From: a virus
Virus record (IMG/VR): IMGVR_UViG_3300019886_000067
Location: 1 to 64,000 of that record
DNA length: 64,000 bases
Strand: one strand, 5' to 3'
The notes beneath the pieces were generated by a model. It had not been told where the DNA came from. It did not search any database and was given only the letters and a program-made list of their open reading frames with translations. The translations under genes were made by a program, and so were the position numbers. The first letter of the stretch is position 1. Every line of letters starts with the position of its first letter. Below are positions 52,143 through 63,455 of the stretch, in pieces.

Positions 52143-52163
52143 AAGCGGGGTGATTCCTACAAG

Positions 52164-52239
52164 TACGGCGAACGAGAATCGAACTCGCATTATCCACGCT
52201 GAGAACGTGGGGTCCTAGTCCTAGTTAGACGACCGCCGC
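52164..52239 (-). tRNA. tRNA-Glu(CTC)
   Basis: Cloverleaf; anticodon arm CCACG-TTCTCAG-CGTGG. Confidence 0.92.
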
Positions 52240-52242
52240 GTA

Positions 52243-52314
52243 TAGCAGACCGAGGATTCGCGCCTCGCTCCCAGGCTTATGAGGCCCGGATGGTCACTAG
52301 ACCACCTGTCTGCA
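52243..52314 (-). tRNA. Atypical tRNA-Met(CAT), initiator-like 1:72 mismatch
   Basis: CGGGC-CTCATAA-GCCTG; T-loop CGCGAAT. Confidence 0.7.
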
Positions 52315-52315
52315 A

Positions 52316-52387
52316 AGTCCCTGTCGGGATTCGAACCCGAACCATTCGCTTAGGAGGCAAACGCGCTATCCATTACGCCACAAGGAC
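52316..52387 (-). tRNA. tRNA-Arg(CCT)
   Basis: Cloverleaf; loop CTCCTAA. Confidence 0.9.
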
Positions 52388-52390
52388 ATA

Positions 52391-52459
52391 TCTCCCTACT
52401 GAGAATCGAACTCAGCCTAACAGATTAGAAGTCCGCCGTCCCGATCCACGGGCAAGGAG
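52391..52459 (-). tRNA. tRNA-Arg(TCT), compact D arm
   Basis: GCGGA-CTTCTAA-TCTGT; 69 nt. Confidence 0.8.
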
Positions 52460-52463
52460 TAAG

Positions 52464-52532
52464 TCCCAAGAGCAGGATTCGAACCTGCACCGCGCGGCTT
52501 ATGAGTCCGCCGTGTCACCTAGACATCCTGGG
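52464..52532 (-). tRNA. tRNA-Met/Ile2(CAT), compact D arm
   Basis: Loop CTCATAA; canonical T arm; 69 nt. Confidence 0.8.
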
Positions 52533-52537
52533 TAGAG

Positions 52538-52606
52538 CGGGGAAGCAACGAATCGAACGCTGGCCTGCGGGTTTGGAATCCGCTTGGTCTCCATGACCTC
52601 TTCCCC
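52538..52606 (-). tRNA. tRNA-Trp(CCA)
   Basis: GCGGA-TTCCAAA-CCCGC; 69 nt. Confidence 0.85.
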
Positions 52607-52653
52607 TGGTTTCGTGTGCCCACCCACTATCGGGGGTAACACGACACACGAAA

Positions 52654-52729
52654 GGGTGTCTGACGGGATTCGAACCCGCATCGAACCGGATCACAACCGG
52701 CGGACTTAACCACTTAGACCACAGACACC
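52654..52729 (-). tRNA. tRNA-His(GTG)
   Basis: Loop TTGTGAT; G-1:C73. Confidence 0.92.
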
Positions 52730-52734
52730 GTGTA

Positions 52735-52803
52735 TCCCCTTACTGAGAGTCGAACTCAGCACTCAGGCTTCGGAGGCCCGAGACACGATCCGCGTGTAAG
52801 GAG
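52735..52803 (-). tRNA. tRNA-Arg(CCG), compact D arm
   Basis: CGGGC-CTCCGAA-GCCTG; 69 nt. Confidence 0.8.
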
Positions 52804-52864
52804 TTGTCACTAGTGGGCTCGCGGGAAGCCCTTTATGAGGGACCTATCTCCCTCGCTAGTGTAG

Positions 52865-52939
52865 CGCTGATGATGGGACTCGAACCCACGACATTCCGCT
52901 CGACAGGCGGACGCTCTGACCAAACTGAGCTACATCAGC
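52865..52939 (-). tRNA. tRNA-Asp(GTC)
   Basis: Canonical cloverleaf. Confidence 0.95.
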
Positions 52940-52945
52940 GTAAAG

Positions 52946-53019
52946 CCTCCCCGACAGGATTCGAACCTGTAACCTCTGGTTTCGTAGACCAGCGCGCTAT
53001 CCAATTACGCTACGGAGAG
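52946..53019 (-). tRNA. tRNA-Arg(ACG)
   Basis: Canonical cloverleaf. Confidence 0.95.
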
Positions 53020-53022
53020 TTA

Positions 53023-53106
53023 TGCGAGTGGTGGGAGTCGAACCCACATGGCCCTTCGGCCGGCGCGGTTTGAACGCACTGCGTATCCCAATTCCACCAC
53101 ACTCGC
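53023..53106 (-). tRNA. tRNA-Leu(CAA)
   Basis: Long variable arm; GTGCG-TTCAAAC-CGCGC. Confidence 0.9.
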
Positions 53107-53109
53107 GTA

Positions 53110-53192
53110 TACGTTCGGAGGGAGTCGAACCCTCAATCCCGATGGGCACTGGCTTCTAAGACCAGCGTGTATACCAATTCCACCACGAACGC
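53110..53192 (-). tRNA. tRNA-Leu(TAG)
   Basis: Long variable arm; loop CTTAGAA. Confidence 0.92.
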
Positions 53193-53195
53193 TCA

Positions 53196-53278
53196 TGCGA
53201 TTGACAAGAGTCGAACTTGCACATTCCGAAGAACACTGCCTCCTCAAGGCAGGGCGTCTACCATTCCGCCACAATCGC
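53196..53278 (-). tRNA. tRNA-Leu(GAG)
   Basis: Long variable arm; loop TTGAGGA. Confidence 0.92.
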
Positions 53279-53284
53279 TTAAAG

Positions 53285-53358
53285 TCAGGATGGCTGGATT
53301 TGAACCAGCGGCTTCCTCCGTCCGAGGGAGGCACGCTACCAGGCTGCGTCACATCCTG
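53285..53358 (-). tRNA. tRNA-Pro(CGG)
   Basis: Cloverleaf; C1. Confidence 0.92.
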
Positions 53359-53363
53359 TTGAG

Positions 53364-53438
53364 TCGGGATAGAAGGATTTGAACCTTCGGCTTCACCGCC
53401 CCAAACGGCGCGCTCTGACCAGACTGAGCTATATCCCG
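53364..53438 (-). tRNA. tRNA-Pro(TGG)
   Basis: Canonical cloverleaf. Confidence 0.95.
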
Positions 53439-53444
53439 AAAAAG

Positions 53445-53517
53445 CTCTTGCGCTAGGATTCGAACCTAGACCTAACGGGTTAACAGCCCGTCGTGCTGCC
53501 GTTGACACCACGCAAGA
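53445..53517 (-). tRNA. tRNA-Asn(GTT)
   Basis: ACGGG-CTGTTAA-CCCGT. Confidence 0.93.
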
Positions 53518-53523
53518 TCGAAG

Positions 53524-53595
53524 CTGGGGAGGTAGGATTCGAACCTACATCGGGCCGGGTCAGAGCCGTCCATCTTGCCATTAGACCACTCCCCA
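53524..53595 (-). tRNA. tRNA-Gln(CTG)
   Basis: Cloverleaf; U1-A72. Confidence 0.92.
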
Positions 53596-53600
53596 GGGTA

Positions 53601-53672
53601 ATGCGGAGGCTGGATTCGAACCAGCATCGAATGGGTTCAAGGCCCACCATCATGCCGTTAGACCACTCCGCA
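53601..53672 (-). tRNA. tRNA-Gln(TTG) with C33
   Basis: GTGGG-CCTTGAA-CCCAT. Confidence 0.88.
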
Positions 53673-53846
53673 GCAGAAAGAACAACATAGCACATCTTCG
53701 TGCCAAAGGTCGGGTCGTCCGGTCCCAATTCGGGATGGAACCGGACGACCGTCGCAAGAGTGCGCTCTCTGGGCTAGCTCTCCAACCCTACGCGCACCAG
53801 GAACGCAACTAATGGGCTGTACGTGCTCTAGGCGTCTCTGCCGAAG

Positions 53847-53898
53847 ACTGTAGCAGATTCTTTGCGGTGTTGCACGTCAAGCGAATCTGTGGTACGGT
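53847..53898. promoter_or_regulatory. Divergent promoters: TGC-TACAGT (-, tRNA array 1) and TTGCAC-N17-TACGGT-N6-ATG (+, cca, leaderless)
   Basis: Hexamers and spacings read directly. Confidence 0.7.
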
Positions 53899-53904
53899 TC
53901 CCCC

Positions 53905-55347
53905 ATGAAGACAACTCCCGATCAGTTCATGGCGAGCCTTGGCTTGCCAGAGGTATATCGCGTTGGAGGTTCAGTCCGAGACGAAGTTCTCGGCCGGCGC
54001 TCCAAAGACTCCGACTATATGGTTCGGGGCTCCACGCTTAATGAGATTAGGTCGGCTGTCGGGCGCGCGGGTGCTAAGCCGAGCAAGCTCAAGCTACGCA
54101 CAGGTGTTGAGGTAGGTGTACGGGCCGCAGTCAAGGGGCTCGGCTTGCTTGAGATTGTTCTGCCGCGCACAGAGCGCTCAACTGGACCCGGCCGGCACGA
54201 TTTCGAGATTCATTGTTCGCCTGATATCCGACTTGAGGAAGATGCTCTTCGTCGTGACTTCAAAATGAATGCGATCTACCTCAACATCGCTTCTCAGCAC
54301 TATGTTGATCCGCTTGGTGGGCTTGATGATATAAAACGTAAACTCATCAACACCACACATGCTGATTCCTTCAAGGAAGACCCGCTTCGCACGCTTCGAG
54401 CGCTGCGTTTCTGTTCTACGTTGCCAGGATTTTGTCTGTCAGGAACTACACACAACCAAATGTGCGACCATGCGCCGGCCGTAACTGGTCTGACGACGAA
54501 AGGTGTCTCTGCTACCGCATTTGATGAGCTTTGCAAGCTGCTCATGGGCAGTCGGCCAAGCTTGGCGCTGGAATTGATGGCCGAAACAGGCGTTATGGCG
54601 GTTTTCCTGCCTGAGCTTGTGCCAATGCTTGACTTCGAGCAGCGTTCGCGCTACCACGAGAAGACAACAAGCAAGCACACGTTCGATGCTGTGCAGGCGG
54701 CGGCTAATATGCACCAACACGCGCCGCTTCGCGTACGTTTGGCACTACTTTTCCACGATTCCGGCAAGCCTTTGATGGCTTGGACAGGCGAGGACGGCCT
54801 TCAGCATTACTACGCGCTTGATCCAAAGCGAGCAGTAGAGCTAAATGCACCAATCGCCGCACTTGAATCACACGAGGCATGGGGCGTCAAGCAAGCGCAC
54901 GCTGCTCTAACGCGCCTTGGCGCTCCAAAGAAGCTACGCCAAGACGTTGAAACACTGATTGCGCGCCATATGTTGCCGCTGCATGAGAACTTTAGGCCGA
55001 TCAAGGTACGCAAGTTGCGTGCAGAGCTTGGCGACGAGCTTTTGCGTGACCTAATCACGCATCGGCTGGCTGATGTGCTCGGCAAGGGCGGTGACACAAC
55101 GGCCGCTGTAGAAGTTCTGACGTGGATTGCCAACGAGCAAGACAGGGCCATCGCCGGCCATGTGCCGCTAAGTCCGAAGGAACTTGATATAAGTGGCCGT
55201 GAACTTGTTGCGCTAGGTTTGAACGGCCGCGAAATCGGACGCGTGCAGAAGCAGCTACTACACGAGGTACTTGCTCAGCCTAAGCTCAACACAAACGAGT
55301 GGCTTGTCAATCGAGCCAAGGTCATACGCCACAAGGATATGAAATGA
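53905..55347 (+). CDS. cca: CCA-adding tRNA nucleotidyltransferase with HD domain
   Basis: VGGSVRD..DSD, EDALRRDF.MNA, EDPLRTLRALRF, LFHDSGK. Confidence 0.93.
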   Translation: MKTTPDQFMASLGLPEVYRVGGSVRDEVLGRRSKDSDYMVRGSTLNEIRSAVGRAGAKPSKLKLRTGVEVGVRAAVKGLGLLEIVLPRTERSTGPGRHDFEIHCSPDIRLEEDALRRDFKMNAIYLNIASQHYVDPLGGLDDIKRKLINTTHADSFKEDPLRTLRALRFCSTLPGFCLSGTTHNQMCDHAPAVTGLTTKGVSATAFDELCKLLMGSRPSLALELMAETGVMAVFLPELVPMLDFEQRSRYHEKTTSKHTFDAVQAAANMHQHAPLRVRLALLFHDSGKPLMAWTGEDGLQHYYALDPKRAVELNAPIAALESHEAWGVKQAHAALTRLGAPKKLRQDVETLIARHMLPLHENFRPIKVRKLRAELGDELLRDLITHRLADVLGKGGDTTAAVEVLTWIANEQDRAIAGHVPLSPKELDISGRELVALGLNGREIGRVQKQLLHEVLAQPKLNTNEWLVNRAKVIRHKDMK

Positions 55348-55547
55348 GCGCTCCGATTTATCCTCCGTGGACGAAGAAGTACAAGCTAAGCTACCTTGGC
55401 TTCAATAACTACGAGGTAATAGAGGAGTCATCAAAAGACATACTCGCGGTCGGTCCTTTGGAGTATGGCGAGGCACAAGACATTGCTGATCGCGCCAATT
55501 CCGAACTCACAGCCGAACGTGTCAAGAACAGAAACAAGGCCAAATGA
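55344..55547 (+). CDS. Hypothetical protein
   Basis: ATGA overlap with cca. Confidence 0.65.
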   Translation: MSAPIYPPWTKKYKLSYLGFNNYEVIEESSKDILAVGPLEYGEAQDIADRANSELTAERVKNRNKAK

Positions 55548-55719
55548 TAAATCTGGCCTTTGTCTGCGCCGGCCTGCTGGGTGTTTTGATGTTCATGTGT
55601 CTCGCGCACGAACGCGAGCTTGAGCGTGAAGAGTGCCCACATCTTAATTGCCGCGAATTTGGAAGCTCCTACAATATCACTATCTGTTTTTGCCCAGATT
55701 GCGGAAAGGTAGACCTACT

Positions 55720-56163
55720 ATGATCCTGCGTAACCAAGCCATATGTACGCTGTGTGGCGACCACATCAAGTCGATACACAAACATGATTTCAAATCTTGT
55801 TTATGTGGAGCGCTATCAGTTGACGGCGGCACTGAGTATCTGCGCCGGCTCGGCAACCCAGGAGAGTACAGAGACACGTCTATTTGTATTCCCGAGCAGC
55901 TTCCGATCAAGGAGGCCGCAAAGTATCTCGGCGTCGTAGTGGCGCTGGGAGATACGGCCGTTGCAGGAACTTCGTGGCTAGAAGGCCAGTTGATAGGTCA
56001 GTTCAAGACTAAGCCTTGGTTCAAGCCGCCGAAGGACAAACGACAACTACTCAAGTGGTGTCGGAAGCTCGTGGAATGGGAGTTGGTTGATGAGCTTACG
56101 ACTAAGGGCGACGCTCAGTGCTATTGGAAATCCAAAGTCGAGCTAGCTACTTGGACTGATTAA
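55720..56163 (+). CDS. Zn-finger phage protein
   Basis: NQAICTLCGDHIKS..HDFKSCLCG..SVDGG motif. Confidence 0.8.
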   Translation: MILRNQAICTLCGDHIKSIHKHDFKSCLCGALSVDGGTEYLRRLGNPGEYRDTSICIPEQLPIKEAAKYLGVVVALGDTAVAGTSWLEGQLIGQFKTKPWFKPPKDKRQLLKWCRKLVEWELVDELTTKGDAQCYWKSKVELATWTD

Positions 56164-56164
56164 T

Positions 56165-56231
56165 TATGCACGATCACGCAGATTAGATGATGTTCTCTTC
56201 GCCTAGAAGTAAATCTGCGTGATCGTGCATA
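56165..56231. repeat. 20-bp perfect inverted repeat between convergent genes
   Basis: TATGCACGATCACGCAGATT-N27-AATCTGCGTGATCGTGCATA. Confidence 0.9.
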
Positions 56232-56235
56232 CGAC

Positions 56236-56556
56236 TTAGTTAGTCTTGGTGACTACTCCGCCTGCCTGGGATTCCTGGGCAGCCAGCGGCAAAGGAGTGG
56301 CCTGCGCTGCTGCTGGTGCAGCCGGCGGAAAAGTAAGTTTCGCAAGCTCATTCTCAGACGTGTCGATACGGCTCTTGACCGTATCTAGGTAGCTCTCAAG
56401 CTGAGCGCTCTGAGAAGCAAGCGCGGAAAGCTGAGAAGTCGCACGAACGAACTCTGCCTTATGTGACTCAAGAAGTTGCTCGGCTGCTGCAATCTTGTGA
56501 GCTACAGTGCCCGGCACAAGCTTCTCGACAAAGTTCAATGCGTCAGAGATATTCAT
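56236..56556 (-). CDS. Coiled-coil hypothetical protein
   Basis: GAAGGA RBS; downstream of tRNA array 2. Confidence 0.7.
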   Translation of the reverse strand: MNISDALNFVEKLVPGTVAHKIAAAEQLLESHKAEFVRATSQLSALASQSAQLESYLDTVKSRIDTSENELAKLTFPPAAPAAAQATPLPLAAQESQAGGVVTKTN

Positions 56557-56610
56557 TGGTACAGTGCATCCTTCCCGTGGTTTTGTAGTAGGAGAAGGAT
56601 ACCATTAGAG

Positions 56611-56696
56611 CGGAAGGAGTGGGACTCGAACCCACACGCCGGCTCACGCCGACCTCAGCACTTTCCAGGCGCAGTACCGCTCCTTTGGGTCCTTCC
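56611..56696 (-). tRNA. tRNA-Ser(GGA), weak D arm
   Basis: Loop CTGGAAA; long variable arm. Confidence 0.85.
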
Positions 56697-56704
56697 GAAA
56701 GAGA

Positions 56705-56775
56705 AGAGCACGGTTGGATTCGAACCAACGTGAGACGGGTTGCAACCGCCGGCTTCGCCCCTCAGCCACGCACTC
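56705..56775 (-). tRNA. tRNA-Cys(GCA)
   Basis: Loop TTGCAAC; U73. Confidence 0.92.
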
Positions 56776-56850
56776 ATAAGCGGGATGCACTTTGGCGCGC
56801 TCCCGAGTGCGCCTCGCTCTAGACGGCCGCAACCGACGAGCGATACTAAG

Positions 56851-56939
56851 CGGTAGGTCAGGGATTCGAACCCTGGGAACACCATTAGATGTTCGCTGGT
56901 TTAGCAAACCAGTCCATTCGGCCGCTCTGGCAACCTACC
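56851..56939 (-). tRNA. tRNA-Ser(GCT)
   Basis: CTGGT-TTGCTAA-ACCAG; long variable arm. Confidence 0.94.
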
Positions 56940-56945
56940 GGAAAG

Positions 56946-57028
56946 CGGAGGGTAAGCGAATCGAACACTCACGCGGTTAGTCGTGCCCTGGGTTTCGAAT
57001 CCAGTTTGCCGCCTTGGCGGTACCCTCC
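56946..57028 (-). tRNA. tRNA-Ser(CGA), atypical D arm
   Basis: Loop TTCGAAA; long variable arm. Confidence 0.82.
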
Positions 57029-57032
57029 GAAA

Positions 57033-57112
57033 TGGAAACGTGAGGAATCGAACCTCATAGTACGAGACAGCGGGGTTACAGCCCACTTGGCGGTCCCAGC
57101 GCCAACGTTTCC
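57033..57112 (-). tRNA. tRNA-Tyr(GTA)
   Basis: GTGGG-CTGTAAC-CCCGC. Confidence 0.9.
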
Positions 57113-57174
57113 GAACGAAGAAGGACTATAGCATACGCTCGACACATTCGCGCCAGATGTGGTACAGTTCTTCC

Positions 57175-57384
57175 ATGAGCAACGTACAGGCCCTAGTAGG
57201 CAAGCCACTCACATTCTACGCCCGAGGCAAGAAGCGCAACATAGGCACGATCACGGATGTATCTGTCGTAGACAACGGCGTCCGATTCGCCGCAACCGTG
57301 ACTGACAGCGAGGTAGCCAAGCTTCTAGGCGTTGATCCTCCTGTTGAGATAAGCGGTGGTGCTGGCGATGTCTCAAGCACCTAA
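57175..57384 (+). CDS. Hypothetical protein
   Basis: TGG-TACAGT-N6-ATG. Confidence 0.7.
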   Translation: MSNVQALVGKPLTFYARGKKRNIGTITDVSVVDNGVRFAATVTDSEVAKLLGVDPPVEISGGAGDVSST

Positions 57385-57979
57385 ACTTGATCCTGCAAGT
57401 ACGTGGCTTGTATCTGACACGCACTTTGGGCACGAAAACATCGTCGGCTTCGCCCGCCGCCCGCACGACCATGAGCAAGTCATTATGGAGGAATGGGCAC
57501 AAACTGTTCCCGACGACGGAACGGTACTGCATCTAGGCGACTTGTCTTATAGAAATAACTCGTTCTTCAAGAACATGATCGCCAAGCACTTGACTGGCGC
57601 TCAGAAGCTCTTGATCCAAGGCAACCATGATCGTCAGCGGCCGAACTTCTATCGTGATAGCGGCTTCAAGATCGTTAAGCCTTTTGAGATTCGCTATGTC
57701 ACGCCGAAGGCTGGTGTCTGGACAGTCTCGTTCTCTCACTATCCCCTAAAGAAGTCAGCACATCCGCTTGCATCAGCAGGCGGCCTAAGACGCGTTCATA
57801 TACACGGCCACATTCACAATAACGGGTATGGCGGCAAGAATTCTCCGTTTGTTCCGTTCAGCGCAGGGCAAATCAACATCAGCGTTGAGCAGATGCACTA
57901 TCGCCCCTGCAAACTAGACGACCTTCTCAACGGCTACATAGAAGGTTGCTACGAGCCTCCGAAGGTCGAGGACAAGTGA
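57368..57979 (+). CDS. Calcineurin-like metallophosphoesterase
   Basis: SDTHFGH, HLGD, GNHD, SHYP, HGHIH. Confidence 0.93.
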   Translation: MSQAPKLDPASTWLVSDTHFGHENIVGFARRPHDHEQVIMEEWAQTVPDDGTVLHLGDLSYRNNSFFKNMIAKHLTGAQKLLIQGNHDRQRPNFYRDSGFKIVKPFEIRYVTPKAGVWTVSFSHYPLKKSAHPLASAGGLRRVHIHGHIHNNGYGGKNSPFVPFSAGQINISVEQMHYRPCKLDDLLNGYIEGCYEPPKVEDK

Positions 57980-58326
57980 ACCTGCCGCCGCTCTATCATT
58001 GGTCGCCCAGCGAGCGCCGCGTCGAAATACTGCAAGATGGGCTCAAGGTGTTCTCTGAGCCAGTCGTTCATGGAGCCGGCCGCGCTCCGTATCTGTGCTT
58101 TGGAACGTGCCCGCGCCAAGCATGGAGTCTATCTGGCGATTTGGATTGGGTGTCAGAAAAAGAGGAATGGGACCTCTGGCAAATCATCCTCTCAAAAGAC
58201 GATGATGTGCATATCAGGATGGAGAGTGGCACATATATTTACGAGGTACGAACGTTCAACTCAATTCCGGCTGATCGTGTGTGGCTTGTTGCGCAACGTG
58301 AGCCGGCGGTCTTCATCGAGCGGTAG
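57976..58326 (+). CDS. Putative ADP-ribosyltransferase/Tpt1(KptA)-like fold protein
   Basis: LYHWS...ILQDGLK..YLCF..IPADRV resembles ART-fold H-S/T motif proteins. Confidence 0.5.
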   Translation: MNLPPLYHWSPSERRVEILQDGLKVFSEPVVHGAGRAPYLCFGTCPRQAWSLSGDLDWVSEKEEWDLWQIILSKDDDVHIRMESGTYIYEVRTFNSIPADRVWLVAQREPAVFIER

Positions 58327-58404
58327 AATGGACAGAATACTTGCGTTTGCGCTACCTTTTTGCCCATACTGCAACTACATCCCGAGCTTCAAGTAACCGC
58401 TGCT

Positions 58405-58734
58405 ATGCCCCGCGAAAAAGTTCTGACTGTTCGTATTTCTGATTGTGAGATTCAGACGTTCAAAGCCACCGGCAAAGGTGGGCAGAACCGAGACAAACGC
58501 GATACGGCCGTTCGTATAATCCACCATCAGTCCGGGGCGCGTGGTGAATCACGTGAAGAGCGTGACCAGCTTTCCAACAAGCGCAAAGCCTTTGTCCGCA
58601 TGGCGAACTCAAAGGCATTCAAGGACTGGCTTACAAGAGAGCATAGCCGTCGTATAGCCGACGTAGATGCCTGGCTTGATGAGCAGATGAAGCCAGAGAA
58701 CCTTGATGTTGAGTATGGCTCGGATACCAACTAG
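58405..58734 (+). CDS. Stand-alone RF-1 (GGQ) domain peptidyl-tRNA hydrolase, ArfB/PrfH-like
   Basis: TFKATGKGGQNRDKRDTAVRIIH..SREERDQLSNKRKAF. Confidence 0.9.
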   Translation: MPREKVLTVRISDCEIQTFKATGKGGQNRDKRDTAVRIIHHQSGARGESREERDQLSNKRKAFVRMANSKAFKDWLTREHSRRIADVDAWLDEQMKPENLDVEYGSDTN

Positions 58735-58975
58735 CTCAAACAACATGCGTGTGTTTAGCGAAGCGCACAAACACAATAACCACTGGCTAGTTGAAGCTGA
58801 ATGGCACGGCAAAATGCGGATTGTCCACAGTGGCCTTGACATCTACGCTGTACTTCGCTGGGCGACCCAGCATGGCTACCACGAGAAAAGCCCTGCCTAA
58901 AAGAGCAATTCTGCAACATAGTTGCAACAAAGCTAAATTAGACAGGACCGCAATGGACACCCGTCTTTCCAACGA

Positions 58976-59048
58976 TGCAACCTGTAGGAATCGAACCTAC
59001 GACGCCCGGCTTTTCAGGCCGGCGCTCTACCGTCTGAGCTAAGGTTGC
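58976..59048 (-). tRNA. tRNA-Phe(GAA)
   Basis: Canonical cloverleaf. Confidence 0.95.
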
Positions 59049-59053
59049 TTGTA

Positions 59054-59125
59054 AGCGCGTGACGAGATTCGAACTCGTTCTTCTTGGTTGGAAGCCAAGT
59101 GTGCCGCCATGAACACTTCACACGC
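59054..59125 (-). tRNA. tRNA-Gly(TCC)
   Basis: CTTGG-CTTCCAA-CCAAG. Confidence 0.92.
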
Positions 59126-59200
59126 GAAAGGCCGGGCTCTCACCGGACTACAAGCGACCACGCTTGCCTTATGGGTCGGTACTTCCCGACAGTAACTTAA

Positions 59201-59272
59201 AGCTCTCACCGAGAATCGAACTCGATACTGACGATTACGAAACGTCCGTGTCACCAACAACACCTTGAGAGC
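59201..59272 (-). tRNA. tRNA-Thr(CGT)
   Basis: Loop TTCGTAA. Confidence 0.9.
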
Positions 59273-59275
59273 ACA

Positions 59276-59342
59276 AGCCCCATATCGGAATCGAACCGAT
59301 TCTAGCTGATTACAAAACAGCCGCCAGACCATCAGATAGGGC
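59276..59342 (-). tRNA. tRNA-Thr(TGT), reduced D arm
   Basis: Loop TTTGTAA; 67 nt. Confidence 0.8.
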
Positions 59343-59431
59343 GTATCCACAGGCTGCCTACTTCTCCTGCTAAGAGGGTCGGCATTTAAAAGGATGTCCA
59401 AAGCAATAAGGACAAGCATTCACCTGTTAGA

Positions 59432-59503
59432 AGCTGATGACGAGAGTCGAACTCGTAACCCCTCCCATACCAAGGGAGTGCTATACCGTTAAGCCACACC
59501 AGC
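59432..59503 (-). tRNA. tRNA-Thr(GGT)
   Basis: CTCCC-TTGGTAT-GGGAG. Confidence 0.93.
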
Positions 59504-59584
59504 GGGCGTGGCGCTCTAACCAGATTTGAGCTACACCCGAGCAAAGCTCGCGCGGTGGGCTTCGATCCCACAACCTCCACTAAG
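59504..59584 (-). ncRNA. Circularly permuted, anticodon-less tRNA-like RNA
   Basis: Order is T arm, acceptor stem closed by a TTT loop, then D arm; ends GTGG/CCAC pair. Confidence 0.8.
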
Positions 59585-59657
59585 TACCCCCGCAAGGAAT
59601 CGAACCTTGTTCGCTGGCTTAAGAGGCCAGTGCTCATCCTGTTAAAGCTTCGGAGGC
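59585..59657 (-). tRNA. tRNA-Lys(CTT)
   Basis: CTGGC-CTCTTAA-GCCAG. Confidence 0.92.
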
Positions 59658-59663
59658 TTGTAG

Positions 59664-59755
59664 TGCGCCTGATGGGACTCGAACCCACATCCGTTGGTGT
59701 GAAAAACCAATGCTGGGGACAACTCAGTTGCCTCTACCATTTCAGCTACAGACGC
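59664..59755 (-). tRNA. tRNA-Glu(TTC) with hairpin insertion in the D loop
   Basis: TTGGT-TTTTCAC-ACCAA; 92 nt. Confidence 0.8.
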
Positions 59756-59761
59756 TTAAAG

Positions 59762-59835
59762 TGCCCCCTCTGGGATTCGAACCCAGTTCTCACCGCTTAA
59801 AAGGCGGGGTTCTAACACACATGAACTAAGGAGGC
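59762..59835 (-). tRNA. tRNA-Lys(TTT)
   Basis: Loop CTTTTAA. Confidence 0.92.
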
Positions 59836-59840
59836 GTGCA

Positions 59841-59913
59841 AGCAACAGACGGGATTCGAACCCGCAACCTTCGACATGGCAAGCCGACGCACTACCGAAC
59901 GTGCTCCTGTTGC
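59841..59913 (-). tRNA. tRNA-Gly(GCC)
   Basis: TCGGC-TTGCCAT-GTCGA. Confidence 0.92.
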
Positions 59914-59918
59914 GTAAG

Positions 59919-59992
59919 TACGCCCCCAAGGATTTGAACCTTGAACCAACACCTTATAAGGATGCTGCTCTAACCAATTGAGCTAGAGGCGC
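59919..59992 (-). tRNA. tRNA-Ile(TAT)
   Basis: GCATC-CTTATAA-GGTGT; canonical D and T arms. Confidence 0.9.
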
Positions 59993-59997
59993 GAGAG

Positions 59998-60072
59998 TGG
60001 ATCGAGAAGGATTTGAACCTTCGACAGTTCGCGTATCAGACGAATGCTCTAACCTGACTGAGCTACCGATCC
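59998..60072 (-). tRNA. tRNA-Ile(GAT)
   Basis: Loop CTGATAC. Confidence 0.93.
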
Positions 60073-60077
60073 ATGAG

Positions 60078-60151
60078 TGGACAATCTCGGACTCGAACCG
60101 AGGACTTCCGCCTTGTAAAAGCGGCGCTCTAACCAACTGAGCTAATCGTCC
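60078..60151 (-). tRNA. tRNA-Val(TAC)
   Basis: Loop TTTACAA. Confidence 0.94.
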
Positions 60152-60155
60152 ATAA

Positions 60156-60224
60156 ACGGGAAGGCTGGACTCGGACCAGCATCTACCGGCCCCACGCCGG
60201 CCGCTCTAATTGAGCTACCTCCCT
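60156..60224 (-). tRNA. Degenerate tRNA-like gene (Pro TGG-like loop CGTGGGG)
   Basis: All stems pair, but no U33, no D-loop GG, T loop TCCGAGT and a 1:72 mismatch. Confidence 0.6.
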
Positions 60225-60226
60225 AG

Positions 60227-60299
60227 TGGTCAATGCTGGACTCGAACCAGCGACTTCGGCGATGTCACCGCCGCGCTCTCCCAACTGAGCTAATCGACC
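60227..60299 (-). tRNA. tRNA-Val(GAC)
   Basis: CGGCG-GTGACAT-CGCCG. Confidence 0.92.
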
Positions 60300-60305
60300 A
60301 AGAAG

Positions 60306-60378
60306 TGGAGAAGATGGGATTCGAACCCACGACATCCTGCTTGCAAAACAGGCGCTCTACCAACTGAGCTACATCCCC
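60306..60378 (-). tRNA. tRNA-Ala(TGC)
   Basis: G3:U70; canonical. Confidence 0.95.
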
Positions 60379-61600: not shown

Positions 61601-62617
61601 CTATTCGACTTTCACAACAACCCCAGGAAAGTCGTTTTCCAGTACCTTGATTGTCTGTGGGTCTTCCGTTTCATACGGGGTTCCAGAGTTTAGAACTGCT
61701 GTCACTAGTTGACCGTTTGCAGCCTTGACTTTCTCAATCGTCAGTTTCGTGCCGCTTTTGGTCGGTTCAAACAGCGCTGCGGCTACGGTGTAGGAGAATG
61801 TAGCCGTTGTGGTGCCGCCAGAGTTGTTTTCGGCCGTGACTTTGATGCTGTAGCTTCCAGTCGTTGTAAGCGAGCCCGTGATAAGGCCAGTAATGTTGTT
61901 GATGGTGAGACCAGGAGGCAAGCCACTCGCGCTGTAAAATACAGCGCGAGTGGCAATAATCTGGATTGAAACTTTGCTCCCGGTGGCTTTTTTCTGCGTC
62001 CCTGGGTTCGTAACTTCTGGTGCAGCTTCTTCAGCTTGTTCAGCGGCCATGAAGTTCGTAAATAGCGGGTAGGAGCCTTGGCCGTCAGAGCCAACGAATC
62101 CGGCAGTGAATGGCGTGTTCGGGTCTTTCGCGTTCAAAACGAGAACCCACGAGCCGGAACCTTCAGGCCGGCGGTAAGCTTCTAGTTTGTTGCCCTGCTT
62201 CCAAAGTGCGAATTCATCACCAGCGGCCGGACTTATAGAGCCAGAAAGGCCAATGCTTGATTCAACGCCGCTTTCAACACGGAATATACCAATTAGGAGA
62301 GTAGATGACGTGTTGTGGTAAAACTGGACTCGATAGCCTGAGTGCGTCGTGTTGTTGTAGCAAAGCCACAAGCATCCGAATCGTTCGGCAATATCCGAGC
62401 CGAGTGACCGCTTGATCGTCACAGCATGGTTGTTTTTGAATTCTTTAGCGTTCCAGTAAGACCCAGAAGACAACCCAAAACCCGAGTATGACATTCCGCC
62501 GGCCGCACTTTTCAGAGCACCCGTAGCCCATGTCATCTTACTCCAATTTGCTTTTTCATACCAAGTAGTTTCGGCATGTTGAAGGTTGTCTTGGAGCGTA
62601 AGTTCTTCTAGGAACAC
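61601..62617 (-). CDS. Lectin-like plus putative Ig (He_PIG) domain virion protein
   Basis: VTNPGTQ..YSASGLPPGLTINNITGLITG. Confidence 0.8.
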   Translation of the reverse strand: MFLEELTLQDNLQHAETTWYEKANWSKMTWATGALKSAAGGMSYSGFGLSSGSYWNAKEFKNNHAVTIKRSLGSDIAERFGCLWLCYNNTTHSGYRVQFYHNTSSTLLIGIFRVESGVESSIGLSGSISPAAGDEFALWKQGNKLEAYRRPEGSGSWVLVLNAKDPNTPFTAGFVGSDGQGSYPLFTNFMAAEQAEEAAPEVTNPGTQKKATGSKVSIQIIATRAVFYSASGLPPGLTINNITGLITGSLTTTGSYSIKVTAENNSGGTTTATFSYTVAAALFEPTKSGTKLTIEKVKAANGQLVTAVLNSGTPYETEDPQTIKVLENDFPGVVVKVE

Positions 62618-62655
62618 TCACCAATTCTGCCACAGCAACCGGCTTTCAGCCGTGC

Positions 62656-62704
62656 GACAATATCGTCACATACGCCCGATTCGAACGAATGTGACGATAT
62701 TGTC
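62656..62704. terminator. 16-bp perfect inverted repeat directly 3' of the RNase P RNA
   Basis: GACAATATCGTCACAT-N17-ATGTGACGATATTGTC. Confidence 0.7.
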
Positions 62705-62710
62705 ACAAAT

Positions 62711-63064
62711 GGGGTCCAGCCTGTAGCCGGGGTTCTGTTCCCAGGACGACAAACCCCTGGGCGACCACGATCTTTCTTACCGGGCTGACTAATTCCCGGC
62801 AGCCGTCCTATGACGTGCCGCTCCAAACCTTGATCGCCCCCGCTATGCTTCGGGCGTCTGTTCTTGGATCGCACCCAGCCTTGGCAACTCGCGCGTGCGC
62901 GCGTCTCGCGGTTCAAGCGTCCCGTGCTACTGTCCGCATCGCTCTCGCAACTTGGCCCCAACAAGGACTCCCGCCGGCCGGTGACGACGAGGTTAGCCCT
63001 CGTCGGGGTGCCCCGAACTTCCTCTCGCGTCCTTCAACCGCGAGCCGCAGTCCGGCTGGCCCAC
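62711..63064 (-). ncRNA. rnpB: RNase P RNA (type A-like)
   Basis: CR-I GAGGAAGTTCGGGGCAC, CR-V AACAGAACCCCGGCTAC; P1, P2, P3, P4, P5/P7, P8, P18 and P19 pair. Confidence 0.92.
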
Positions 63065-63068
63065 TAAA

Positions 63069-63180
63069 ACGAAGAGAGGGATTCGAGCCCTCTACTGCCA
63101 ACATCGCAGCCACCATACCTTGCTCCGCTCCGAAGGTTTCTGTACTTGGAGTCGTTAGACGATAATCCGTGTTGAAACCT
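63069..63180 (-). ncRNA. Unassigned structured RNA: hairpin plus D-stem-less tRNA mimic
   Basis: AGGTTTC/GAAACCT stem; GCGGAG/CTTCGT acceptor-like stem; AGAGGG-CTCGAAT-CCCTCT T arm. Confidence 0.55.
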
Positions 63181-63187
63181 ACAAACA

Positions 63188-63267
63188 TGGAGAAGGAGGG
63201 ATTCGAACCCTCGTCTTACCGCTGCGCCATTAGCGCGTTACACGGCAATCGACACCAAGCCTTCCCC
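63188..63267 (-). ncRNA. ssrA: Minimal tmRNA (tRNA-like domain only)
   Basis: GGGGAAG/CTTCTCC-A with G3:U; stemless D loop ending TCGA; P2 TTGCCG/CGGTAA; GAC; GAGGG-TTCGAAT-CCCTC. Confidence 0.85.
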
Positions 63268-63275
63268 GTCTTCAA

Positions 63276-63284
63276 ACCATATCA
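63276..63284 (-). promoter_or_regulatory. Extended -10 (TG-A-TATGGT) 8 nt upstream of the mini-tmRNA
   Basis: Same TGn-TAnnnT form as the boxes in front of the three tRNA arrays. Confidence 0.6.
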
Positions 63285-63455
63285 CGTATAGCGCTCCGGC
63301 GTCTTGGTCGGCCCAAGCAGCCATATCAAGAACTTGTAAAGCAGGTAGAGCCCAATCGCAACACCCAGCACTTCGCCTAGCGCCACGGCCGTTCCTTCGC
63401 CGCCGCCGGACGCGAATCCAACAACTATCAGTAGCAATGCGATAAGAAGTATCAT
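63282..63455 (-). CDS. 57-aa two-TM membrane protein (MILLIALLLIVVGF...)
   Basis: Translated by hand; leaderless after TTGACA-N17-TAGGGT-N6-ATG. Confidence 0.7.
   Translation of the reverse strand: MILLIALLLIVVGFASGGGEGTAVALGEVLGVAIGLYLLYKFLIWLLGPTKTPERYT

Follow-up and report, generated by a model that had tools for sequence, protein, structure and literature searches.

A phage-encoded homolog of class A RNase P RNA with a rebuilt specificity domain in a tRNA-rich soil phage

Near the end of the 64,000-nucleotide stretch of DNA analysed here (the window, i.e. the first 64 kb of the 80,397-bp IMG/VR viral contig IMGVR_UViG_3300019886_000067), the minus strand carries a gene for an RNA that resembles bacterial RNase P RNA, the ribozyme that processes the 5' ends of tRNAs. 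As matched by the Rfam covariance model RNaseP_bact_a (RF00010), the whole RNase P RNA-like gene has 356 nt (62708..63063, -), with its first helix P1 spanning 63062-62712; relatives and covariation support the gene as well. Phage genes flank it on either side. The contig, which has a CheckV completeness of about 66% and belongs to an uncultured soil phage, is that of a genuine tailed phage, with genes for a portal, an HK97-type major capsid protein, a head-tail adaptor and a tape-measure protein as well as for DNA polymerase A, ribonucleotide reductase, an SNF2 helicase and a phosphoesterase, and with 33 tRNA genes. No close cultured phage was found, the capsid identity to the nearest cultured phages being at most 28%, and host inference failed. 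A blastn search of 50,697 GenBank phage records with the RNA region gave no match, and the open reading frames (ORFs) in the region show no protein-level conservation among the relatives described below.

A preliminary description, made from the letters of the window, had interpreted this segment as a phage-encoded RNase P RNA and had suggested a covariance-model search as a check. At the Rfam gathering threshold, no RNase P match was obtained in the stretch. With permissive filters, cmscan aligned RF00010 in full length (model 1-367) to 62708-63063(-) with 19.1 bits and an E-value of 9.4e-4 in a 1-kb search or 1.8e-5 for the 80-kb contig, and RF00010 was the top scorer among the models of the RNase P clan. 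The posterior probability in this alignment is high for P1, P2, P3, the conserved region CR-I, the 3' strand of P15 with its GGU, CR-IV and CR-V, and the entire specificity domain (S-domain) is passed over with local ends. CR-I, CR-IV and CR-V occur in the right order and are invariant or nearly so across the four sequences of a subgroup that consists of the window RNA and three related RNAs of viral contigs, here designated L030, L005 (identical to L064) and L050. The homology is secured by one of these relatives, because models built from the window sequence alone find L030, and L030 in turn scores 54 bits on RF00010 (E 3e-17). By the weak direct match and this transitive chain, the RNA is identified as a homolog of bacterial class A RNase P RNA. 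The interpretation given in the preliminary description is thereby borne out, as the Rfam match and the chain via L030 are joined by selection on the structure and by the phage nature of the contig, and we consider it highly probable that the RNA is an RNase P RNA homolog under selection.

From 5' to 3', the RNA is composed of P1, P2, P3, CR-I/P4, P5, an S-domain module, P5', the junction J5/15 and P15, followed by an extra hairpin, a P18-like hairpin, CR-IV, P2', an optional P19, CR-V/P4' and P1'. The elements that the preliminary description had placed on the minus strand were all present at that site when checked by script or tool, and this computational verification comprised P1, P2, P3, P4 with its bulged U, P5, a P8-like hairpin, the UCCAAG/UUUGGA arm with GGU, P18, CR-IV and P19. 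The 5' strand of P1 (63054..63062, -) pairs with 62712-62721 in a 9-bp duplex of -18.5 kcal/mol (GGGCCAGCC/GGCUGG-A-CCC), and the 5' strand of P2 (63045..63052, -) pairs with 62763-62770 at 8/8 positions (GACUGCGG/UCGUGGUC). P3 is a hairpin that adjoins CR-I (63024..63044, -) and has the 6-bp stem CUCGCG/CGCGAG. CR-I (63010..63024, -; GAGGAAGUUCGGGGC) aligns to the RF00010 consensus GAGGAAAGUCCGGgC and holds the 5' strand of P4 (63011-63019) with the bulged U, and CR-V (62724..62738, -; ACAGAACCCCGGCUA) aligns to the consensus ACAGAACCCGGCUUA and holds the 3' strand (62725-62732). The P4 pseudoknot helix is formed by CR-I GAGGAAGUUCGGGG pairing with CR-V CCCCGGCU, which gives 8 bp plus the bulged U, and RNAalifold independently predicted this arrangement from the four-sequence alignment. 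Compared to the bacterial norm, CR-I lacks one A and has gained one G, and CR-V carries an additional C; these changes compensate each other, in that an outer A-U pair is lost and an inner G-C pair is gained.

P5 (GCACCC/GGGUGC) is formed by 63006-63010 with 62872-62876. The P15 arm (62822..62868, -; UCCAAG/UUUGGA), in which 62863-62868 pair with 62822-62827, contains an inner P16-like hairpin and shows compensatory changes. Ahead of its 3' strand, at 62827-62829, lies a GGU of the L15 type, which is invariant in the four sequences; RF00010 aligns GGUUUGGA to its consensus GGUaggcc at this point. The extra hairpin (62800-62820, -) and the P18-like hairpin (62780-62799, -; CCGGG/CCCGG) follow, and then CR-IV or J18-2 (62771..62779, -; UAAGAAAGA), which aligns to the consensus CuAGAugAAU, was verified as AGAAAGAU in the window and reads AGAUAGAU in L030 and L005. 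The P19-like hairpin (62740..62761, -; CCCAGG/CCUGGG) is optional, being present in the window and in L005/L050 and absent in L030.

Evidence for selection came from two covariance sub-models that were built from the window sequence alone, R1 covering P5 plus the S-domain (141 nt) and R2 covering P15 to CR-IV (99 nt), so that the extra hairpin and the P18-like hairpin lie within R2. R1 matched L030 with 75.5 bits (E 6e-13), L005 with 48.5 bits and L050 with 46.5 bits, each time over the whole model and with no non-canonical pair flagged. In the resulting alignment, 126/126 cells are standard pairs and 15 of the 44 pairs are changed on both sides; 0 of 500 shuffles reached the observed value, and slid registers gave 0-3. 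R2 matched L030 with 37.9 bits (E 4e-6), with 98% of the cells paired and 8 pairs changed on both sides versus 0-2 in slid registers; L005 and L050 were not recovered by R2 at E<=1. P2, at the register fixed by its neighbours, is paired at 8/8 positions in 4/4 sequences (slid controls 0-5), and 5/8 positions are changed on both sides. P1 has 9 bp in the window, 15 bp in L030 and 7 bp in L005 with unrelated sequences, and P3 is rebuilt as CUAAGC/GCUUAG in L030 and CUGCG/CGUAG in L005. The P1-P2-P3 shell is formed by 17 of 21 members of the wider family described below versus 34% of non-cognate 5'/3' combinations; when the duplex energies of cognate and non-cognate strands were compared in wide windows, which is a blunt test, P1 gave a modest signal and P2 none. 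Covariation cannot be assessed for P4, because P4 is invariant in the subgroup. MAFFT with RNAalifold misregistered several helices in whole-length sequences, and a third model, built from a compact relative, was dropped, as its interior fold was unreliable. As judged by covariation, the structure is under selection and the signal is uniform over every helix, with P1, P2, P3, P5, P15, P18 and the rebuilt specificity domain all preserved through compensatory changes.

Several points weigh against the reading as a working RNase P RNA. The direct score of 19.1 bits is far under the RF00010 gathering score of 100, and composition bias in the match is high (13.5). The part of class A RNAs that recognizes the tRNA elbow, namely the specificity domain P7-P14 with CR-II and CR-III, is not alignable here. 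J5/15 is GA where AA is usual, and the loop of the P18-like hairpin has 10 nt in the window and is not a GNRA tetraloop; in L005/L050 the loop is GCAA/GCGA. Furthermore, the close subgroup consists of four sequences from three lineages, and the alignments from which the pairs were counted were fitted by the models themselves.

Could the RNA be a decaying, functionless remnant of a captured host rnpB? The very low Rfam score and a 59-nt insertion in the S-domain that is specific to the window would fit this idea, but every helix is kept by compensatory changes across phages whose shared proteins of the tRNA cluster are 58-71% identical; the L030 phage is a real relative of this one, with an identity of 58% for the phosphoesterase, 62% for an adjacent ORF and 71% (over a fragment) for a CCA-adding enzyme. 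The core motifs are invariant, including CR-V, which is the same in the four sequences and in a variant strain. A contig of this variant strain (62644-62795) has 18 differing positions, 4 of which are in the loop of P19, 0 in the P19 stem and 0 in CR-V, so stems and CR-V are spared. A recent capture is also contradicted, because cellular genomes are virtually devoid of the variant P4. We therefore disfavour a remnant as very improbable.

It might also be argued that the resemblance arose by chance or that the segment is an assembly chimera with host DNA, the latter a possibility that the preliminary description had itself raised. The Rfam score is indeed only sub-threshold, but the match is full-length with all helices in order, homologs exist in other phage contigs, phage genes lie on both sides, and a soil sample of a different study yields short contigs with 0 differences over 62711-63050, 62821-63120, 63086-63391 and 62466-62690, i.e. 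identical sequence over the RNA and its flanks. One of these independent contigs (62821-63120) extends into a tRNA-like element upstream of the RNA gene, and another (62466-62690) takes in the start of the downstream protein gene and most of a 19-bp hairpin. In the sample that is the likely source, the stretch is contained in one 15-kb contig. Chance resemblance and chimera are ruled out, and we attribute a negligible probability to them.

The most unusual part of the RNA is the region that P5 encloses (62872..63010, -, including P5), which is covered by the R1 model and is not alignable to the S-domain of RF00010. It begins with a P8-like hairpin at 62985-63005 that has 8 bp and a GCUAA loop (GAAA in L030), and it contains two short nested helices (62976-62979/62877-62880 and 62971-62974/62908-62911), which surround a conserved GAG...UU(G/A)(G/A)A junction and a variable hairpin. 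This variable hairpin carries the window-specific extension of 59 nt (62912-62970), inside of which there is a small hairpin with a GAGA tetraloop. A further hairpin at 62890-62903 has 5 bp and a GCAC loop, and the conserved AGUUGCCAA is next to it. A 35-nt indel distinguishes the S-domains of the window and L030. The preliminary description had regarded the S-domain as divergent and had named two elements in place of the usual ones: the element TTGAAC is indeed conserved (UUGAAC, UUAGAAC or UUGGAC across the relatives), whereas ACAGTAG is no equivalent of CR-II, because it lies in the window-only insertion (idx 94-152), which is absent from all three relatives. In terms of alignment, the S-domain is a different module and not merely a divergent one, and the class A model cannot align it. 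The module is common only to the window, L030, L005 and L050, and R1 gave no match when run on the other 17 family members, canonical ones included. Most likely, the ancestral P7-P14 specificity domain was replaced by a compact lineage-specific module.

The altered P4 permitted a search for a wider family. We defined a variant-P4 group by the occurrence of CR-I GAGGAAGUUCGGGG and CR-V ACAGAACCCCGGCU on one strand of a viral contig together with a full-length RF00010 match. In exact-motif scans of IMG/VR, the variant CR-I was found at 66 loci and the variant CR-V at 40, single-motif counts that are about those expected by chance, and both motifs, on one strand and 172-414 nt apart, were found at 25 loci. 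These loci correspond to 22 distinct RNAs including that of the window, a number that is a lower bound for the variant P4 on the viral contigs of IMG/VR, and 13 of the 22 have at least 4 tRNAs within 3 kb. The scores on RF00010 are graded and start with the near-canonical L057 and L013: 255 bits for L057 (on a 300-kb contig with terminal repeats), 191 bits for L013 (on a 168-kb contig, adjoining tRNAs and a transfer-messenger RNA (tmRNA)), 63.5 bits for L045, 63 bits for L012, 54 bits for L030, 28 bits for L005, 27 bits for L050 and 19 bits for the window RNA, which is the most diverged of the members scored (others 27-255). Different clades of the group have different S-domains. L012 has only about 250 nt (1003-1253, -), and the same size and a distance of 172 nt between CR-I and CR-V are found in L039 and L052; as their RF00010 matches are full-length with 63 bits, these are natural mini RNase P RNAs. 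Two tmRNAs share their contigs with an RNase P-like RNA and tRNA arrays, a permuted one of 127 bits in L023 (6659-6983, -) and a standard one of 89 bits in L013 (10443-10753, -). Scans for more members of the window's subgroup in viral and metagenome contigs (GTTCGGGGC...GGCCGGYGGGAG) and of viral contigs for the P5/P15 junction pattern gave only chance matches in GC-rich coding DNA, and no relatives were found via the neighbouring He_PIG protein.

In 185,579 prokaryote species genomes (one each), the variant-P4 motif pair at full-size spacing was found once. This match (L116; JAYVGZ010000557.1, 3650 bp; RNA at 1230-1567, -) is a contig of a Pseudomonadota metagenome-assembled genome with six tRNAs, one of which directly adjoins a sub-threshold RNase P-like RNA of 62.7 bits, and it is probably a binned phage fragment rather than the rnpB of the cell. 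The variant-P4 class thus appears to be essentially viral. The canonical motif pair of bacteria was found in 30 viral contigs. About 22 of these copies sit terminally on small contigs of provirus type that have 0-1 tRNA, as would fit host rnpB. The remaining 8 lie in dense arrays with 10-18 tRNAs within 3 kb, and most of their contigs measure 114-369 kb. Canonical CR-I/CR-V RNAs in dense tRNA arrays are found in L124, L125, L131, L134, L138, L145 and L148 of IMG/VR, and phages therefore carry canonical as well as variant RNase P RNAs. The sole GenBank match to the queries with the canonical family was in a record named "Microcystis phage MaAM05" (L117, MW495066.1, 112416-118478), where an unannotated S-domain-like stretch lies among fabI, engB and mtgA; as this part of the record looks cellular, the match was not used.

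Beyond the gene itself, its homology, its structure with the selection acting on it and its phage context, which are established here, the tRNA genes of the phage point to a function. The presumed substrates are the 33 tRNA genes, which ARAGORN and Rfam place in arrays at 52163..60378 on the same strand as the RNA gene (-). By their Rfam scores they are mostly canonical, 0/33 encode a 3'-CCA, and the spacers between them are mostly 3-5 nt long. The RNase P RNA gene stands outside any array, at 2.3 kb from the nearest tRNA. Inside the tRNA cluster, the plus strand encodes a CCA-adding enzyme (tRNA nucleotidyltransferase; 53905..55347, +; Pfam PolyA_pol and PolyA_pol_RNAbd; PHROG 2244, E 7e-59) and a phosphoesterase (57356-57979, +), both of which also occur in the L030 phage. 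The protein subunit RnpA (PF00825) was looked for in the 80-kb contig, which is about 66% complete, and in five viral records of relatives, of which three have a completeness rating of 100%, and in neither case was there a match. A Pfam scan of further ORFs of the contig, which was not exhaustive and included no search aimed at HARP/PRORP, gave no other tRNA-processing protein.

It is assumed that phages depend on the host enzyme for the maturation of their tRNAs. We infer a different route here, in which the RNA would be transcribed from the minus strand at the head of the tRNA region and would fold into a complete catalytic domain (P1-P3, P4 pseudoknot, P5, P15 with GGU, P18, CR-IV). As there is no RnpA on the contig or in the relatives, the RNA would use RnpA of the host or act alone, and the borrowing of host RnpA as protein partner is what we propose. 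The RNA would then cleave the densely spaced arrays at every tRNA 5' end, and since there is no encoded CCA and spacers have 3-5 nt, one such cut per tRNA would suffice to dismantle them. Host exonucleases would trim the short trailers, and the CCA-adding enzyme of the phage would complete the 3' ends. The GGU of L15 is predicted to be able to pair with the 3'-RCCA of tRNAs, in a phage whose tRNA genes are without CCA. A processing of phage pre-tRNAs, with host RnpA or by the RNA alone, is plausible from the sequence data, and we regard it as likely that the phage-borne class A homolog serves as the catalytic subunit in an RNase P for the maturation of the phage's own tRNAs. Two considerations speak for caution: RnpA or a protein-only RNase P could sit on the missing part of the contig, which is about 66% complete, and an RNase P-like RNA of orthopoxviruses did not cleave pre-tRNA in vitro, so likeness is no proof of activity (PMC3001073).

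What else could such an RNA do? The best-conserved parts of the phage RNA are CR-IV, CR-V and P15, and these are the regions that contact RnpA in known holoenzymes. A selected RNase P RNA homolog could therefore be a decoy or modulator that soaks up host RnpA or competes with host RNase P, and by such competition it would redirect or shut down host RNA processing. The replacement of the substrate-reading domain and the lack of RnpA in the phage and its relatives would agree with this, and a role of this kind has been discussed for the poxvirus RNase P-like RNA (PMC3001073). A protein sponge, however, would need neither the bulged U of P4 nor the GGU of L15, and the phage RNA has kept this active-site architecture; its replacement S-domain is under strong structural selection, family members are found in or beside tRNA arrays, which fits a processing role, and blocking RNase P would harm a phage that expresses 33 tRNAs. 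We keep the decoy as an unlikely alternative.

A second alternative is that the RNA is an active ribozyme that was retargeted by its rebuilt specificity domain to substrates beyond ordinary pre-tRNAs, such as two tRNA-like elements upstream of the gene, tRNA-like structures within the mRNAs of the phage, or non-canonical tRNAs of the phage with which host RNase P copes poorly. Such a retargeting would be in line with the lineage specificity of the S-domain, for which R1 matches 0/17 other family members, with the differences in S-domains between the clades of the family, and with the position of the two non-canonical tRNA-like elements directly 5' of the gene (63066-63130 and 63188-63267). Nevertheless, these alternative substrates are without direct evidence, the 33 tRNAs are mostly canonical by Rfam score, and in other organisms, pre-tRNAs are still processed by minimal RNase P RNAs that have almost no S-domain or none at all. 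Retargeting thus seems rather doubtful, and the maturation of the phage's own ordinary tRNAs remains the interpretation that we prefer.

For the variant-P4 RNAs as a whole, we tentatively consider that they may constitute a virus-specific ribozyme lineage, in which a universal catalytic domain is retained and specificity domains are swapped clade by clade, resulting in a private, possibly orthogonal tRNA 5' processing; this broader view is possible, and we hold it with less than even confidence. If it is true, such a private enzyme needs only host RnpA or no protein at all; it could be tuned to packed arrays without CCA and could work irrespective of host shut-off or of the level of host RNase P RNA.

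How does the phage RNA relate to known systems? With the class A RNase P RNA of bacteria (M1 RNA of E. coli, encoded by rnpB) it shares the order and topology of P1-P3, the P4 pseudoknot, P5 and P15, as well as the GGU of P15, the P18-like hairpin, CR-IV and the optional P19. It differs by its 19 bits versus the cut-off of 100, the variant P4, the GA in J5/15, the extra hairpin between P15 and P18, a smaller S-domain module with a lineage-specific extension, and the lack of rnpA in the phage. Reduced RNase P RNAs are known also from cells, such as the type T RNAs of Thermoproteaceae, which are without most of the S-domain, and the small RNAs of Mollicutes and organelles. As in these cases, the phage family retains the catalytic domain together with a specificity domain that is reduced or remodelled, and its shortest members have about 250 nt. 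In contrast to the reduced cellular RNAs, which are the sole and essential ones and have their own proteins, the phage copy is an accessory one that coexists with the host enzyme, and the S-domain of the window RNA is rebuilt and not deleted. In comparison to the other phage RNase P RNAs of IMG/VR, which have the same variant CR-I/CR-V and also belong to tRNA-rich phages, the window RNA is unique in its 59-nt S-domain extension and lies 2.3 kb from the nearest tRNA.

Two viral systems need to be considered as well. Theta ribozymes, which are minimal ribozymes similar to that of hepatitis delta virus (HDV), adjoin tRNAs in gut phages and have been proposed to lessen the dependence on host RNases (PMC10879173). 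They are thus also phage-encoded ribozymes linked to phage tRNA genes, but they are small and self-cleaving with a proposed processing of 3' trailers in cis, whereas the phage RNA is a homolog of a trans-acting 5' processing ribozyme of the multiple-turnover type; RNase P is treated as a host function in that study (PMC10879173). The RNA of orthopoxviruses (camelpox) that has been likened to RNase P RNA is viral as well, but its similarity is a loose one of secondary structure only, whereas the phage RNA has a conserved core, a covariance-model match and graded relatives up to canonical RNase P RNAs (PMC3001073). This orthopoxvirus RNA, with its loose similarity and without activity, is the sole viral precedent that we found in the literature (PMC3001073). 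A search of the full-text literature for a phage-encoded RNase P RNA gave no description of one; tmRNAs but no RNase P are named in a huge-phage survey, and phages do not figure in the Bcheck paper. The RNA of the window is thus described here as a virus-encoded catalytic domain derived from type A that is combined with a lineage-specific S-domain.

RNase P RNA is counted among the universal housekeeping ribozymes of cells. If the proposed function is true, this ribozyme joins the translation-related genes that are carried by viruses, and the phage RNAs are natural experiments on how far a specificity domain can be remodelled or removed. It would then also have to be asked why tRNA-rich phages need their own RNase P, be it for capacity, for the specificity towards odd tRNAs, or for evading host shut-off or defence. 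The compact variants might also be used as minimal or orthogonal scaffolds for RNase P.

The surroundings of the gene contain further RNA elements. No sigma-70-type promoter was found near the RNA gene. Upstream, at 63188-63267 (-), there is a tRNA-like element of 80 nt with an 8-bp acceptor-like stem and the T arm GAGGG/UUCGAAU/CCCUC; its middle part is atypical, and it has no ARAGORN call and a weak Rfam tmRNA match (12 bits). A tRNA-like remnant at 63066-63130 (-) ends 5 nt ahead of P1 and has the T-arm-like hairpin AGAGGG/CUCGAAU/CCCUCU, which is followed by the U-rich CUUCGUUUUA and gives a terminator-like score; the overall fold of this remnant is no better than that of shuffles (z +1.1). 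Directly 3' of the RNA lies a perfect hairpin of 19 bp (62652..62706, -; fold of -46.2 kcal/mol for 62620-62712, z -7.2), which is a candidate 3'-end or processing element and may define or protect the 3' end. In the variant strain, two A>G changes in one arm of this downstream hairpin keep the pairing (G.U). After the 19-bp hairpin, a small GC hairpin, CGGCU GAA AGCCG, follows at 62632-62650 (-).

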